The notes: generated by a model from the sequence alone, not told the origin. Counted from the stretch's first letter, positions 5,844-11,826 are shown. The stretch is DNA of 32,000 nucleotides from Bdellovibrionales bacterium (GCA_963692945.1 OY843585.1:330001-362000), one strand, 5' to 3'. Program-made: numbers and translations.

Positions 5844-7318
5844 TTTTTACCTCTGTCTGTGCAATAAGATTTAATAAGAGTTGTCATATGCTCAAAAATA
5901 TTTTTATGTTTTCCATTAGCACTTGATAGTGTTCGTTTAGAACGAGAATCGCTAGAAGAACTGGCACTGCCAGATGTCTTTTTACCACTTCCCTTTCCTA
6001 AAGGGTCGTTTTCATGGTTGCTTGCTTCTCCCCCACCAGAGCGAACTCCTCCTGCAAAACTACCAAAACCTCTTCCATAAGAGCTTCTAGAAGATCTTGC
6101 TCCTTTTCCTAATCCCTCTTCATCATCGTCTGTATTTCCTGCTAAAGAACTTCCTGGTGCCAAAGGAGGAGAACCGGTTGGAGTTTTTGAATCTTTTTTA
6201 TCATTAGCTTCTGCTTCTGCTGTAGAGTCTTCTGTTCCACTTGATGGTGGGAGTTCATTACCAGGGTCTGGTGGTGTTTCTCCAGCACTGGGGTCGTCTA
6301 TGTTTGCAGTTAGACAATTACTTCCAGTACATGTTGATGGGTTTTCACCAAGGTCAAAAGTTGAACCACTACCTGGGACGGTAGGTCTATTAGGTGGTGG
6401 TGGAGTTTTATCTTTTTTGCCGTCGTTATCTTTTAAATGGTCAGCAATTGTATAATTTATAGCTGCATGTAAAAGATTCTCTAGACCTTGACCCATGGCA
6501 GCTGCTGCTTTTTCTCTTTCTTTTGAACATTTGGTTTTAAATTCTTCAGCACTTGTAATTTCTGATGAACATAACTTTTCAATGGCTTCATCTTTATTTT
6601 CAACTTCTTTTGTAATTTCTGATGATGTACAGGATTCTAAGGCTTGTTTTATTTCTTTATCTATTTCTTCTATATTTTGTACTAATCCTACAAAGTTTGT
6701 TTTTTTTGTTATCTTATCTATACAAGTTTCACAGGCTTTAATTTTTTCTGTACAGGCACTTTCACACTTACGAATGTCAGTGTAACACATACCTGATACA
6801 GCAGCATTTACACCAGCTAAACCAAGATTCAGATTACCTATTTTCTCAGTTACTTGTCCTCCATTACTTGGTTTATTAGCTGCTACAACAGCTCCGTACA
6901 TTGTTCCACCTCTTCCAAGGTATGTGGATGCTGTAGTCAACTTTCTTGCTGTACAAGTGTCTTCCACTTTCCCCGGAGCATCAGCATTACATTCTATTGG
7001 GTCACCATCACCTTCTCCTGCTTCAGCTTTATTAAATGGAGAGTAGGCCGTTAAAGGATTAGGACCAGTGTGCTGCCTCTTAGCACTATTAGGTACTTCT
7101 GTCTTAACAGAAGAGGAAGTTTGATAATAATTACAAAATTTATTTTCCTCACCACAGGCTTTCATTCTTTTTTGTTCTATTTGGAATGCTTTGACTGCAT
7201 CAACATTTTCAGATGAAGCTTGATGAGAGTTAAAAAGAAAGTTAGGATTAAACATAAACATAAACATAAACATAAACGATTTTAATAATTTAAAAATTAT
7301 TGATAAAAGATTTTTCAT
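5834..7318 (-). CDS. Secreted Cys-rich / low-complexity protein A, first gene of the cluster (494 aa)
   Basis: ATG preceded by AAGGATGGG. Hydrophobic N-terminus with an (FM)4 repeat, a Cys-rich central helical region (CESACTEKIKACETCIDK...), and a Pro/Gly/Ser-rich C-terminal half ending in NIFEHMTTLIKSYCTDRGKNCQ. Confidence 0.75.
   Translation of the reverse strand: MKNLLSIIFKLLKSFMFMFMFMFNPNFLFNSHQASSENVDAVKAFQIEQKRMKACGEENKFCNYYQTSSSVKTEVPNSAKRQHTGPNPLTAYSPFNKAEAGEGDGDPIECNADAPGKVEDTCTARKLTTASTYLGRGGTMYGAVVAANKPSNGGQVTEKIGNLNLGLAGVNAAVSGMCYTDIRKCESACTEKIKACETCIDKITKKTNFVGLVQNIEEIDKEIKQALESCTSSEITKEVENKDEAIEKLCSSEITSAEEFKTKCSKEREKAAAAMGQGLENLLHAAINYTIADHLKDNDGKKDKTPPPPNRPTVPGSGSTFDLGENPSTCTGSNCLTANIDDPSAGETPPDPGNELPPSSGTEDSTAEAEANDKKDSKTPTGSPPLAPGSSLAGNTDDDEEGLGKGARSSRSSYGRGFGSFAGGVRSGGGEASNHENDPLGKGSGKKTSGSASSSSDSRSKRTLSSANGKHKNIFEHMTTLIKSYCTDRGKNCQ
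7250..7278. repeat. Hexanucleotide repeat (AAACAT)4 plus a partial unit, encoding FMFMFMFMF in the signal peptide of protein A
   Basis: Direct read: aaacat x4 at 7250-7273, followed by aaacg. Confidence 0.95.
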
Positions 7319-7340
7319 ATTTTTCCCATCCTTAAAATTT

Positions 7341-7382
7341 CTTACTTCTTACTTCTTACTTCTTTCTTCTTACTTCTTTCTT
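7341..7382. repeat. Six tandem heptamers (CTTACTT/CTTTCTT) 23-64 nt upstream of the protein A start codon
   Basis: Direct read: cttactt x3 (7341-7361), ctttctt, cttactt, ctttctt. Confidence 0.9.
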
Positions 7383-7511
7383 ATTTCCCTATAAAACTTA
7401 TCGGAAATATAAGATTTATAAAAAAGTCGTTCTTTTATTTTAAGAGAAAAATCTTTTTCAGCCTAAATTTTTCATTTTTTTAGCTAAAAAGTGTCTCATT
7501 TTAATACATTT

Positions 7512-7816
7512 TAACAAAACTCTCGTTCAAAAAAGTATTTTCTACTCTTATTTTAACGAGCTTTTCATCACAAGAGGGGACACTCTTTTACAAAACTCTA
7601 GTGTTACCTTTCTTATTTTCTGACCTTTCATCGTAAAAGGGGACACTCTTCAAGCTCAAAAAGTAAAAAAGGTATTCCTAGAGAAAAACTTCTGTTTTTC
7701 GCACTTTTGTTTTTCGCATCACCGGTTTTCTGAGTTTTCATCGTAAGAGGGACACTCTTCAAATCTCGTTAAACTAAGAGTTACTTAATAGGCTTATATT
7801 TGAACTAGAGTTTTGT
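7512..7816. repeat. Cluster R1 of modular hairpin (MITE/REP-like) elements, three cores
   Basis: Termini are TAACAAAACTCTCGTTC (7512-) and TGAACTAGAGTTTTG (-7815), with an internal CAAAACTCTAG at 7591. Core copies TTTCATC(G/A)(T/C)AA.AGGG(G)ACACTCTT at 7563-7589, 7626-7653 and 7736-7762. Also holds the GGTATTCCTAGAGAAAAACTTCTGTTTTTCGCA module seen in R4 and R5. Confidence 0.85.
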
Positions 7817-7922
7817 AAAAACGACAGTATCCGAATTTACAAATAAAAAATGAAAAAAAGCCCTGCTTCTTGATAGTTTATTCATACTCTCTTTTTGCTT
7901 TATATAGATATTGAGAAAAACA

Positions 7923-8966
7923 ATGTCTAAAAAAGCTAAGCAAGTTTTAAATCTTAAAAATCAAACCTTAGAATTTAAAAAAGGAATTCATAAGAAAAAC
8001 ACAGCTTTTAGTCATGATAAGTTTTTTAAACTCTTCTATTCTAATCCTGACTTAGCTACAGAACTCTTTGAACTCATCTTTTCAAAAAAAGAAATGAAAG
8101 CTTATGATTGGAAAAAACTAAAAATAGAAAAAGATAGTTTTGAAGATAAAAGAGCTGATCTTATTTTCTCTGTTCCTTTTAAAAAAATTCCTAAAATGAA
8201 ACTCACCCTCTTTATTCTTCTAGAACATAAGTCCTATTATGATAAAAACCTCTTCCATCAACTTTTAGATTATCAAGTGTTAATTCACCGACATAATAAA
8301 GACCATCTTGGTTATTTACAACCTATAATTCCTGTTTTGTTTTATCATGGGAAACAAACTATGAAGTGGAAATCTTCTTTTTTAGAAGAGAATTTTAGAG
8401 ATTCTCTTTTTAAAATTCCTTTAGAAACAAGAAAAAACATGTTAAACTACAAGTTGAAAGTAATAGATGTGAATGCTCCAAGAGTCCAAAGAGCTGGTAA
8501 GGATAAAAGGTTTAAGGGGCGAGGGGCGTTGAGTTTATTGAGGGAAATATGGAGTTTAAAGAACCCAACAGATTCTAAGTTGCGTGAGATTGTTTTAGAT
8601 TTTAAGGAGTTGTTTAAAAGTATAGAAGGTCAACGAAAAGCGGATGTTTTGTTAGGAATTACTGAGTATCTGAAACAGAACACGGGGTTGAGTGCAAAGA
8701 ATTGGAAGAAGATTGAGGATTTGATGGTAAAAGAGGGATTTTTAAAAAGAGGAGGAACTATGATAAATATGAGAAAGATTATAAGAGAACGAGCTCTGGA
8801 AGAAGGACTGGAAGAAGGACAACGAAAAGGACGACAAGAGGGGCGACAAGAGTTTAAAAAAGTTATTTTGAATATGTTGAAGAAAAAACTTGATATCTCT
8901 TTGATTTCGGAAGTGACAGGTTTGTCTAAAGCAGAGATTAAAAAACTAAAAAACAGTCATAAGTGA
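7923..8966 (+). CDS. Rpn/YhgA-like recombination-promoting nuclease (PD-(D/E)XK, 'transposase_31' family), full-length form
   Basis: N-terminal HDKFFKLFYSNPDLATELFELIF, then RADLIFSV...LTLFILLEHKSYYDKNLFHQLLDY (a D...E-x-K nuclease motif in the YhgA-like arrangement), and a C-terminal VILNMLKKKLDISLISEVTGLSKAEIKKL helix-turn-helix-like tail. The ORF track starts at TTG 7911; the first ATG is at 7923. Confidence 0.8.
   Translation: MSKKAKQVLNLKNQTLEFKKGIHKKNTAFSHDKFFKLFYSNPDLATELFELIFSKKEMKAYDWKKLKIEKDSFEDKRADLIFSVPFKKIPKMKLTLFILLEHKSYYDKNLFHQLLDYQVLIHRHNKDHLGYLQPIIPVLFYHGKQTMKWKSSFLEENFRDSLFKIPLETRKNMLNYKLKVIDVNAPRVQRAGKDKRFKGRGALSLLREIWSLKNPTDSKLREIVLDFKELFKSIEGQRKADVLLGITEYLKQNTGLSAKNWKKIEDLMVKEGFLKRGGTMINMRKIIRERALEEGLEEGQRKGRQEGRQEFKKVILNMLKKKLDISLISEVTGLSKAEIKKLKNSHK
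8749..8762 (+). promoter_or_regulatory. Internal ribosome-binding site plus in-frame ATG inside the rpn-like gene
   Basis: AGAGGAGGAACT-ATG, with GGAGG at 8751-8755 and the ATG at 8760 in frame (residue 284). A second in-frame ATG lies at 8769. The same SD+ATG block heads the two downstream cassettes. Confidence 0.6.
8760..8966 (+). CDS. Candidate internally initiated C-terminal small protein (RpnS-like, 68 aa) nested in the rpn-like gene
   Basis: In-frame ATG with a strong SD. The product is MINMRKIIRERA + 19-aa linker (LEEGLEEGQRKGRQEGRQE) + conserved tail. The same architecture occurs as separate genes at 9013 and 9327. Confidence 0.5.
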   Translation: MINMRKIIRERALEEGLEEGQRKGRQEGRQEFKKVILNMLKKKLDISLISEVTGLSKAEIKKLKNSHK

Positions 8967-9012
8967 TTTTTTAAATGTCTTTAAAGAGGGGCTTTTAAAA
9001 AGAGGAGGAACT

Positions 9013-9261
9013 ATGATAAATATGAGAGAGATTGTAAGAGAACGAGCTCGGGAAGAAGGACGACAGGAAGAACGAAAAAAATGGTTTAAAAACGGACAAA
9101 CTAGGGGACGACAAGAAGGGTTTAAAAAAGGACGACGAGAGGGACGACGAGAAAAACGACAAGAGTTTAAAGAAGTTATTTTGAATATGTTGAAGAAAAA
9201 ACTTGATATCTCTTTGATTTCGGAAGTGACAGGTTTGTCTAAAGCAGAGATTAAAAAATAG
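9013..9261 (+). CDS. Free-standing RpnS-like C-terminal cassette, copy 2 (82 aa)
   Basis: Same AAAAGAGGAGGAACTATGATAAATATGAGA head as at 8745-8774. The 39-aa linker has 4-residue periodicity (REEG RQEE RKKW FKNG QTRG RQEG FKKG RREG RREK RQE). The 84-nt tail (9175-9258) is identical to 8862-8945. Confidence 0.6.
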   Translation: MINMREIVRERAREEGRQEERKKWFKNGQTRGRQEGFKKGRREGRREKRQEFKEVILNMLKKKLDISLISEVTGLSKAEIKK

Positions 9262-9326
9262 TCATAAGTGATTTTTTAAATGTCTTCAAAGAGGGATTTT
9301 TAAAAAGAGGAGGAACTATAATAAAT

Positions 9327-9662
9327 ATGAAAAAGATTATAAAAGAACAAGCTATGGATAAAGAGTTTCAAGAAACTCTTAAAAAAGGGTTTCAAACTTG
9401 GATAAAAGAGCGTCAAAAAGGGTTTGAAGAAGCACAACGAGAATGGTTTCCAGAAGAGTCTGAAAAAGGGTTTAAAAAAGGGTTTAAAAAAGGACGACAA
9501 GAAGGACAACAAAAAGGACGACAAGAAGGACAACAAAAGTTTCAAAAAGTTATTTTGAATATGTTGAAGAAAAAACTTGATATCTCTTTGATTTCGGAAG
9601 TGACAGGTTTGTCTAAAGCAGAGATTAAAAAACTAAAAAATAGTCATAGAACAAAACTCTAA
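9327..9662 (+). CDS. Free-standing RpnS-like C-terminal cassette, copy 3 (111 aa)
   Basis: Same head, but the first ATG is mutated to ATA, so the start is the second ATG. 62-aa linker and an identical 84-nt tail (9549-9632). The last codons ACA AAA CTC TAA lie in the terminus of repeat cluster R2. Confidence 0.6.
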   Translation: MKKIIKEQAMDKEFQETLKKGFQTWIKERQKGFEEAQREWFPEESEKGFKKGFKKGRQEGQQKGRQEGQQKFQKVILNMLKKKLDISLISEVTGLSKAEIKKLKNSHRTKL

Positions 9663-9742
9663 TTTTACTTTTTGAGCTTGAAGAGTGTCCCCTTTTACGA
9701 TGAAAAGCTCGTTAAAGTAAAAGTTCACACACGAGAGTTTTG
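9651..9742. repeat. Cluster R2: single hairpin element
   Basis: ACAAAACTCTAA...TTTTACTTTTTGAGC-[TTGAAGAGTGTCCCCTTTTACGATGAAA, 9678-9705]-GCTCGTTAAAGTAAAAGTTCACACACGAGAGTTTTG. The arms are self-complementary. Confidence 0.85.
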
Positions 9743-9783
9743 AAAAAGTTGACTTTTTCAAGAAAATTTTGCATTTTAACTTA

Positions 9784-10485
9784 ATGCCTATTGTTCTTAT
9801 TTTTCTTTGTTTTTTTTGTATGTTTGGCTGTGTGAATGCTGAAAAAACACAAGCTAGATTTACAGCAAAAAAATATTATGAGATATCTCTCCAATATAAA
9901 AAAGAAGGAAAGTTATCTAAAGCTCTTAAAACTTTAGAAGAACTTAAAAAACATTTTTCCTATGATTCTTACAGCTTGTCAGCCTCTTTACTTATAGCAG
10001 ATATTCATTTTGAAAGAAGAGACTATGTTCTTGCAGCTGGTCTCTACACACAATTTCAAAAAATTTATCCAAAAACGAAAAGTCAATATGTTCACTATCA
10101 GCTAGGACGTTCTTATTTTTATCAACTTCCTAAGTCTGCTGATAAAGATTTATCTGTAGGAGAGTTGGCTTTACAAAACTTTCAACCTCTTTTACGAAAA
10201 TCCTCTCCTTACAAAAAAGAAGCTAAAAAATATGTGAAAAAAATTCAGACTCTAAAATCTAAAAAAGATTTTCTAGCGGCTCTTTTTTATTCAAAGAAAA
10301 AATGGAATCCATCGGCTTGGAAGCGATTGCAAATTCTTATAAAAGAGTATCCTGAAAGTCCTTTTGTCCCAGAGGCTCTTTTGCTTAGCTATAAACTGGC
10401 TAAAAAAATGAATAAAAATCCTAGCTCTTTTAAAAACCGTTTACTCAAAGAATTTCCAAAATCTGAACAAGCAAAATCCTTATGA
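9784..10485 (+). CDS. bamD: Outer membrane protein assembly factor BamD-like TPR lipoprotein
   Basis: Signal peptide with lipobox (CMFGC). The TPR-like pattern and the ...YPKTKSQYVHYQLGRSYFYQ..., ...SSPYKKEAKKYVKKI..., ...EYPESPFVPEALLL... segments match the BamD/ComL layout. The ORF track starts at TTG 9769; the first ATG is at 9784. Confidence 0.65.
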   Translation: MPIVLIFLCFFCMFGCVNAEKTQARFTAKKYYEISLQYKKEGKLSKALKTLEELKKHFSYDSYSLSASLLIADIHFERRDYVLAAGLYTQFQKIYPKTKSQYVHYQLGRSYFYQLPKSADKDLSVGELALQNFQPLLRKSSPYKKEAKKYVKKIQTLKSKKDFLAALFYSKKKWNPSAWKRLQILIKEYPESPFVPEALLLSYKLAKKMNKNPSSFKNRLLKEFPKSEQAKSL

Positions 10486-10991: not shown

Positions 10992-11088
10992 CAAAACTCT
11001 AGTTCTTCCTTTTTATTTTTAATATTTCTTTATAAAACGAGTATAGTTTTTGTATATAGTTTATGGTAAACTAAAAGAAGGAGAAATA

Positions 11089-11826
11089 ATGAGTAATAAA
11101 TCTACTGTTTTGGAGGCTAAAGCTTATTTTGCAGAAATTCGGAAACTCTTCAAAGAACGAAAAGAGTGCGATAAAGAAATGGCAGAGGAGCGAAGAAAAG
11201 AACGAGAAGAGCGAAAAAAAGAACGAAAAGAGTACGATAAAAAAATGGCAGAAGAGCGAAGAAAAGAACTAGAAAAAGAGCGAGAAGAGTACGATGAAAA
11301 AGCAGCAGAAGATATTAAAGAACTCCGAGCTAGCCAAAAAGCAACTGCCAAACAAATAAAAGAGACGGATCTAAAATTCAATGATTACTGGGATAATTGG
11401 GATAATTGGGATAACTGGGATAACTTGATGGAATCTTTATATAAACGAGATTTAGTGAAACTTCTAAAACAAAAAGGTATCAAAGTTGATCTGACTGCAA
11501 CAAATATAGTGAAAAAACATGGGGAACCACAATTTGAATTTGATATTTTAGCTTCCAATGGGGAGGAGCTCGTTGTTGTAGAAGTGACAACAACTTTGTA
11601 TATTAAAGAGTTGAATTATTTCATTAAGAAATTAAATAGAGTTACGGATTTTATGCCAGAATTTAAAGGTAAGAAAGTTTATGGAGCCGTTGCGTATTTA
11701 AAAGCCAATAAATCTTCTGACAAAAGAGCTGAGAAAGAGGGTTTGTTTGTGATAAGAGCGACAGAAAGCAGTTCCAATATTGTTAATAAGCAGGATTTTA
11801 AACCCAAATCTTTTTCAAAACTCTAG
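11089..11826 (+). CDS. DUF3782-like protein: N-terminal coiled coil + C-terminal PD-(D/E)XK-type domain, copy 1
   Basis: AAGGAG lies 6 nt before the ATG at 11089 (the ORF track's TTG 11050 extension is unlikely). FEFDILASNGEELVVVEVTTTL is a D...E-V-(K/T) motif, read as EVK in copy 2. The layout (coiled coil, then the short nuclease-like domain, ...KVYGAVAYL...GLFVI) matches DUF3782-type proteins as I remember them. The last codons TCA AAA CTC TAG lie in the element terminus. Confidence 0.55.
   Translation: MSNKSTVLEAKAYFAEIRKLFKERKECDKEMAEERRKEREERKKERKEYDKKMAEERRKELEKEREEYDEKAAEDIKELRASQKATAKQIKETDLKFNDYWDNWDNWDNWDNLMESLYKRDLVKLLKQKGIKVDLTATNIVKKHGEPQFEFDILASNGEELVVVEVTTTLYIKELNYFIKKLNRVTDFMPEFKGKKVYGAVAYLKANKSSDKRAEKEGLFVIRATESSSNIVNKQDFKPKSFSKL

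Follow-up and report, generated by a model that had tools for sequence, protein, structure and literature searches.

We examined a 32,000-nt stretch of DNA (the window) in which a Bdellovibrionales-like rpn gene is followed, on the same strand, by two short genes that repeat its 3' end. The features of the locus are given below. Throughout, copy 1 denotes the 3' module within rpn, copy 2 the ORF 9013-9261, and copy 3 the ORF 9327-9662.

7544-7790: three copies of a dispersed palindromic repeat upstream of rpn, with the core TTTCATCGTAARAGGGGACACTCTTCAA
7923-8966, plus strand: rpn gene (RpnL, 347 aa), encoding a PD-(D/E)XK nuclease domain and then a C-terminal repeat helix with a helix-turn-helix (HTH)
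8748-8756 and 8760, plus strand: internal Shine-Dalgarno (SD) site AGAGGAGGA and in-frame ATG, both read from the sequence
8760-8966, plus strand: putative intragenic RpnS, 68 aa from the predicted start ATG at 8760
8802-8861, plus strand: copy 1 repeat tract, five dodecamer (4-aa) units (EGLE EGQR KGRQ EGRQ EFKK)
8862-8945, plus strand: tail 1, 84 nt, encoding the helix-turn-helix part (VILNML...AEIKK)
8939-8954, plus strand: 8-nt direct repeat TAAAAAAC, present twice in copy 1
8967-9012, plus strand: spacer 1, with the duplicated junction AGTGATTTTTTAAATGTCTT / AAAGAGGG and an SD at 9001-9009
9013-9261, plus strand: RpnSs-1 (copy 2), 82 aa, with a 10-unit tract (9055-9174) and tail (9175-9258), lacking the conserved C-terminal LKN
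9262-9326, plus strand: spacer 2, with the same junction as spacer 1, an SD at 9306-9314, and ATA at the conserved-ATG position (9318)
9327-9662, plus strand: RpnSs-2 (copy 3), 111 aa, with a 16-unit tract (9357-9548), tail (9549-9632), and an altered C-terminus (NSHRTKL)
9648-9749: inverted copy of the dispersed repeat, abutting and overlapping the end of RpnSs-2

The product of 7923-8966 matched the YhgA-like PD-(D/E)XK family PF04754 (E = 2.8e-23; 83 bits against a cutoff of 21) and the NCBIfam model TIGR01784 (53.2 bits; cutoff 52.1). Residues D79, E101, H102, and K103 of the RpnL nuclease motif showed no variation in an alignment of 40 homologues; from general knowledge of the fold, we take D79 and E101-H102-K103 to be the catalytic PD-(D/E)XK residues. 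In the same alignment, G277, G278, and M280, which are encoded by the internal SD and start ATG, were invariant, and the repeat tract differed in length among homologues. As predicted from its sequence, 7923-8966 is organized like the rpn genes of Zhong et al. (2023; PMC10400941), in which RpnS has a start site of its own within the gene. No Pfam match to DUF4351 (PF14261) was obtained at E ≤ 1; homologues of the cassettes carry PF27070 (HTH_Rpn_C) in its place. The DUF4351 annotation was given for "some species" only (PMC10400941) and is hence not defining. PADLOC returned nothing meaningful for Rpn or the cassettes, and the neighbors of rpn are housekeeping genes (BamD/YfiO-like and Hpt), not a defence island.

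Both extra ORFs are predicted stand-alone RpnS-type cassettes. Each matched the C-terminal positions of TIGR01784 (E = 8e-7 and 2.5e-7), and all three copies share the tail peptide VILNMLKKKLDISLISEVTGLSKAEIKK; a 38-nt tail probe had exactly three matches, against 0.00 expected from shuffles. The distance from start codon to tail is 34, 54, and 77 codons in copies 1, 2, and 3, respectively, and the linkers are made up throughout of 12-nt units that encode E/K-G-x-x (5, 10, and 16 units), with a 12-nt period detected in each copy by Tandem Repeats Finder. These results agree with much of what the first-pass annotation had described, namely two further ORFs (9013-9261 and 9327-9662), linkers of 19, 39, and 62 residues (our codon counts minus a 15-aa head), and a 4-residue period in the linker, which in fact runs through all of it. 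The RpnS-like identity that it proposed was likewise borne out by the TIGR01784 C-terminal positions, by PF27070 in homologues, and by a profile match to YpaA. The SD/ATG head that it assigned to all three copies was found as far as the SD is concerned, whereas the first ATG is not common to them.

Compared with the family consensus, there are small lesions in each extra copy, although its SD is unchanged. Copy 2 keeps both ATGs and ends six residues early, because one of the two TAAAAAAC units is missing and a premature TAG results; by its pattern, this truncation is an 8-nt slippage-type frameshift, and it removes the nearly invariant L342 and K343. In copy 3, the first ATG, an invariant Met codon in the family, is replaced by ATA, and the next ATG (9327), which lies 13 nt from the SD, serves as the ORF start. 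The older units of its tract are degenerate, and its end is changed from ...NSHK-stop to ...NSHRTKL-stop, with the dispersed palindromic repeat beginning at approximately 9648, within the last codons. This repeat takes the place of the spacer seen after copies 1 and 2, and no third copy of that spacer was found downstream of copy 3. Two further candidates were rejected. The purine-rich repeat gives rise to ORFs on the minus strand (8995-9162 and 9300-9545) that are not genes, and a programmed frameshift fusing rpn to copy 2 was discarded because copy 2 lies in the +1 frame, out of reach for a −1 slip on A-runs.

The dispersed repeat is intergenic and occurs in eight copies within the 32 kb, at 7561, 7625, 7735, and 17740 on the plus strand and at 9678, 12031, 16951, and 17805 on the minus strand. 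Its core, TTTCATCGTAARAGGGGACACTCTTCAA, is 28-30 nt long and conserved, and in at least four copies it caps a long hairpin; the stems vary in sequence from copy to copy yet remain complementary (CTTTCTTATTTTCTGA/TCAGAAAATAAGAAAG, TTTTTCTTTTTAGGAG/CTCCTAAAAAGAAAAA, and TTTTACTTT..CGAGC/GCTC.AAAAGTAAAA). A 5' motif, AACAAAACTCTCGTG, goes with the repeat, and certain copies lie nested within, or are truncated into, others. The rpn locus is flanked on its two sides by oppositely oriented copies, although flanking inverted repeats are reported to be absent from published rpn genes. The stem was seen when copies were folded singly and was missed by RNAalifold on the alignment, in which the arms were misaligned; Rfam and tRNA scans of the window returned nothing, including for this repeat. 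A MITE-like element is one possibility, a structured RNA or DNA site another. Elsewhere in the neighborhood, a heptamer tandem repeat (TTCTTAC, 6.3 units, 7339-7387) lies just upstream of a minus-strand gene starting at 7318, which encodes a 494-aa low-complexity protein with the N-terminus ...MFMFMFMF..., and could be a slippage-prone control region. A 258-aa plus-strand ORF at 11050-11826 contains a Hjc-like PD-(D/E)XK nuclease domain (PF01870, E = 3e-5) and follows four WDN repeats and a strongly charged repetitive stretch (EERRKE...), with weak PADLOC Csx1-type matches.

An AF2 model of copy 3, built from a 52-sequence alignment, has helices at residues 12-40 and 43-81, separated by a break at 41-42, and an HTH at 86-110, with a mean pLDDT of 76. 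Confidence was low at residues 41-60 (pLDDT approximately 50), where the helix break is associated with a proline. In a Foldseek search of the PDB, the top matches to this model were serine-recombinase HTH domains, none of them significant; Escherichia coli RpnA-S (7TH0) ranked seventh, also without significance (E = 1.6; 35% identity; target-normalised TM 0.62). With this limit on the 7TH0 match, the predicted architecture, a long alpha-1 helix followed by two short helices, may resemble that of intragenic RpnS. A profile search of the PDB found the gamma-delta resolvase C-terminal domain, a resolvase-type HTH only (hmmsearch E = 0.006); sequence searches of the PDB with the full-length protein and copy 3 gave nothing usable, and Foldseek with the full-length AF2 model gave nothing significant. 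The RpnS tail together with the preceding G-rich repeat (8850-8966, and likewise in copies 2 and 3) aligns to the gamma-delta/Tn3 resolvase C-terminal arm plus HTH, and NCBIfam returned weak FliH-repeat matches to the xxxG tract.

Stand-alone downstream copies of RpnS have already been reported as RpnSs, namely ypaA after rpnE (RpnESs) and RpnCSs after rpnC in some strains (PMC10400941). According to the same work, YpaA is synthesised in E. coli, RpnSs copies descend from their own upstream gene, and rpnSs has been lost in E. coli strains by fusion with the rpn N-terminal part. The 4-aa repeats are hypervariable and their number sets specificity, and a one-repeat mismatch abolishes neutralisation of RpnC (PMC10400941), a repeat-matching rule established for E. 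coli RpnC only. Repeat variation is noted to insulate paralogues from one another (commentary, PMC10400984).

In the E. coli K-12 locus (L013), ypaA begins 12 nt after the rpnE stop, the duplicated segment starts at the SD (AAAAGGAGAGATTAATG), and YpaA has one additional 4-aa unit, KLEG, compared with the RpnE C-terminus. Using hhalign, a cassette profile built from the window cassettes and 49 related small proteins was matched to E. coli YpaA with 95.2% probability (E = 2.5e-8, 57 columns). The E. coli rpnE module never exceeded two per genome among 5,420 genomes; about half had two copies and the rest had one. RefSeq calls the K-12 ypaA (L013, 16905-18002) a pseudogene, and elsewhere in E. 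coli the ORF is named 'hypothetical protein' or 'Rpn/YhgA-type helix-turn-helix domain-containing protein'.

Because the anatomy is shared and the cassette profile aligns to YpaA, the window locus is, in its predicted organization, the same kind of object as E. coli rpnE-ypaA. As in rpnE-ypaA and rpnC-RpnCSs, a stand-alone C-terminal module lies directly 3' of rpn on the same strand; as in rpnE-ypaA, the duplication takes in the internal SD and start codon, and the repeat number departs from that of the upstream gene; and, as with RpnSs in general, the copies are most similar to the C-terminus of their own upstream gene (tails 84/84). The window locus differs from rpnE-ypaA in having two stand-alone copies instead of one, linkers of 10 and 16 units instead of 5, no Pfam DUF4351 match at E ≤ 1, and a Bdellovibrionales-like host. 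Its rpn gene resembles RpnA/B/C and RpnP2 with their intragenic RpnS in carrying a conserved SD and ATG ahead of the repeat helix, whereas the two cassettes, unlike those intragenic proteins, are separate genes and not internal translation products. Tandem rpn arrays arising by direct duplication are also described (PMC10400941, as cited from SI Fig. S1B), and the window shares with them, to the extent of that description, tandem direct duplication with a common junction; unlike in those arrays, as cited, the 3' module alone is repeated here and the nuclease domain is not. The suggestion that tandem stand-alone RpnS arrays had not been described was overstated, since single RpnSs are published (PMC10400941). 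What the main text of that paper lacks is two or more such copies in a row, as seen here and at the related loci L004 and L012, and this is a modest extension.

Homology between the units begins at AAAGAGGG (8730, 8983, and 9288), about 30 nt 5' of the internal start site, and stops after AGTGATTTTTTAAATGTCTT, approximately 16 nt beyond the stop codon; both duplication junctions are the same. The shared junctions suggest a single initial duplication that was later amplified by unequal crossing-over, and the position of the unit start means that every copy carries its own ribosome-binding site and start codon. No terminator-like site was found in 7300-9900, hence none between the copies, and promoter-like sites in that interval were no commoner than in shuffles, which suggests that the three reading frames are probably carried on one transcript. 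We consider it likely that the window contains an Rpn toxin-antitoxin-type locus of a Bdellovibrionales-like organism, in which the RpnS 3' module was tandemly duplicated twice, giving two rpnSs of the rpnE-ypaA kind. The extra genes would most likely be co-transcribed RpnSs paralogues whose origin lies in tandem duplication, with unequal recombination and slippage of the repeats. The founding event would have been a tandem duplication of the RpnS-encoding 3' module, including its SD and start codon, and amplification by unequal crossing-over would have followed. Tract lengths would shift through slippage and recombination within the repeats, while recent unequal crossing-over or gene conversion would keep the tails alike.

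Divergence between the copies is distributed unevenly. The tails (8862-8945, 9175-9258, and 9549-9632) differ at 0/84 positions in every pair, as had been noted in the first-pass annotation; the heads, also taken there to be identical, proved to be similar only, differing at 5/69, 5/69, and 10/69 positions (86-93% identity; 7-14% divergence). The spacers differ at 2/29 positions, and the 36 nt preceding the tail differ at 5-9/36 (14-25%). At no head position does copy 1 depart from the consensus. By rough estimates, two unaltered 84-nt tails would be very improbable under approximately 7% neutral divergence per copy, and protein-level constraint alone would still allow roughly a 5% chance of zero synonymous change in the tails. 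Tail homogenisation by gene conversion or recent crossing-over is therefore likely but not proven. The earlier argument that conserved flanks beside a diverged middle indicate cassette exchange holds in part: divergence is indeed non-uniform, and exchange between cassettes is plausible given an array elsewhere (L012) with incongruent head and tail relationships, but the middle is largely the known hypervariable, slippage-prone dodecamer tract.

To place the locus among its relatives, we considered a small-protein search, which returned 104 stand-alone relatives (56-194 aa), often several per genome, and a survey of related loci, which was small and partly biased, as several loci were found via the small proteins themselves. 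Adjacent C-terminal-only ORFs, which the survey proposed earlier was to look for in other genomes, were found at L003-L006, L009-L012, and E. coli rpnE-ypaA, and none was found at L008. Among full-length homologues chosen regardless of their neighbors, 2/3 had a downstream stand-alone copy (L009 and L010, not L008). One stand-alone copy each was present at L003, L005, L006, and L011, and full-length and partial copies were mixed at L005 and L012. No close relatives of the window locus were recovered: a genome-contig scan gave two distant loci, and a metagenome scan with a 40-sequence profile gave one weak locus.

The longest array among these related, Bdellovibrionales-like loci, at L004 (2529-4935; another organism, 53% GC), has rpn followed by four tandem stand-alone RpnS-type genes. 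Its periods of 367, 355, 379, and 343 nt are apart by multiples of 12, with unequal repeat numbers, and its stand-alone copies have a common head, unlike the in-gene head. In the tails, pS was 0.24-0.41 and pN/pS was 0.2-0.45 in most pairs (from 44 codons only), which points to the stand-alone copies of L004 being maintained genes under purifying selection.

These values bear on the view that the extra copies in the window are non-functional debris, by-products of recent tandem duplication that are decaying in a recombination-prone repeat region. We regard this as unlikely, though a serious contender. Each of the eight coding substitutions found in the copy 2 and copy 3 heads alters an amino acid (8/8 nonsynonymous), so purifying selection on the extra copies is not evident within the window, and the head changes of copy 3 (4/5 G-to-A, the fifth C-to-A) are such as AT pressure would give. 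Decay would also account for copy 2 being cut short by slippage, the loss of the conserved start ATG in copy 3, the degenerate units of copy 3, whose long helix has a proline and a low pLDDT around it, and the pseudogene label of K-12 ypaA. Conversely, the frames are open over 82 and 111 codons at approximately 32% GC with the SD kept in both, YpaA, their E. coli equivalent, is made as a protein (PMC10400941), and the L004 stand-alone copies have diverged synonymously with low pN/pS. The open frames are weak evidence either way, because an indel of 12 nt leaves the frame intact in any case. An assembly artefact, for which the repetitive nature of the region might argue, is extremely improbable: the units are unequal in length (253, 305, and approximately 360 nt) and sequence, exact repeats are at most 84 nt and thus below sequencing-read length, and the architecture recurs in independent assemblies (L004, L012, and L009-L011) and in E. 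coli.

Neisseria pilE/pilS and Borrelia vlsE/vls are silent-cassette variation systems. By analogy only, the window locus resembles them in having an expressed gene followed by partial copies, with conserved flanks around a variable middle, and the array could be read as a reservoir of C-terminal modules, in line with the donor cassettes of the first-pass annotation: recombination across the shared head and tail would place one of the stored linkers in the nuclease gene and so alter RpnL/RpnS specificity. A relevant case is L012 (1-7259), where rpn+S is followed by rpn+S+S, adjoining KAP NTPase and AbiTii genes. The tails of full-length rpn1 and stand-alone S2 are identical at 95/96 positions, their heads at 98/126, and heads group by gene class; this head/tail mosaic implies recombination breakpoints within the repeat tract. 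The fusions reported from strains of E. coli, in which rpnSs is joined to the N-terminal part of rpn (PMC10400941), and the identical 84-nt tails of the window, a substrate for recombination, fit the same idea. However, mosaics show that recombination took place, not that there is a selected or programmed switch, and the window cassettes are not silent in layout, as each has its own SD and start codon, unlike the donor cassettes of pilE/pilS and vlsE/vls. We consider a reservoir of this kind improbable.

A second Rpn protein, P0001 (343 aa), is 95% identical to the window RpnL and probably belongs to the same genome. Its differences from RpnL are concentrated in the repeat tract, which has one unit fewer and other unit sequences, and its last repeat unit, KFQK, is that of copy 3 and not of copy 1, which hints at exchange with copy 3 and is, like the tract-centered differences, in keeping with a module reservoir. 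The existence of at least one more close paralogue in what appears to be the same genome, together with the insulating effect of repeat variation (PMC10400984), raises the alternative that the stand-alone copies act in trans, as cognate antitoxins of other RpnL paralogues whose repeat numbers match theirs. This is highly improbable, as P0001 has 30 residues before the tail, compared with 54 and 77 in the stand-alone copies, and fits neither; furthermore, no other Rpn paralogue of this genome was present among the 120 matches listed.

Returning to co-transcribed RpnSs paralogues as the preferred reading, each small protein would resemble RpnS in consisting of a long alpha-1 helix and an HTH, with alpha-1 as the dimerisation surface. 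Under the published repeat-matching rule, the 10- and 16-unit proteins would pair poorly with the 5-unit RpnL. The earlier suggestion of spare antitoxins conflicts with the one-repeat-mismatch result, and because the rule predicts poor pairing, a back-up antitoxin role is less likely for the extra copies than one as orthogonal RpnS paralogues that could supply new C-terminal modules. Decoys and donor cassettes, also put forward there, are candidate roles.

How and why Rpn C-terminal repeats vary so fast is a question raised by the 2023 work (PMC10400941). To this question, the window adds a clear example from a distant phylum and no new principle. There is an outside chance that arrays of two to four stand-alone RpnS genes with differing repeat numbers are a selected feature in such Bdellovibrionales-like organisms, a standing library of specificity modules that feeds the nuclease gene by recombination. 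If so, recombination in the dodecamer tract or across the head and tail would change which RpnS silences the nuclease, and possibly also what releases it. Multi-copy loci of different lengths beside one nuclease gene offer natural material on repeat number as a determinant of RpnL/RpnS pairing, and on whether module recombination yields new specificities.
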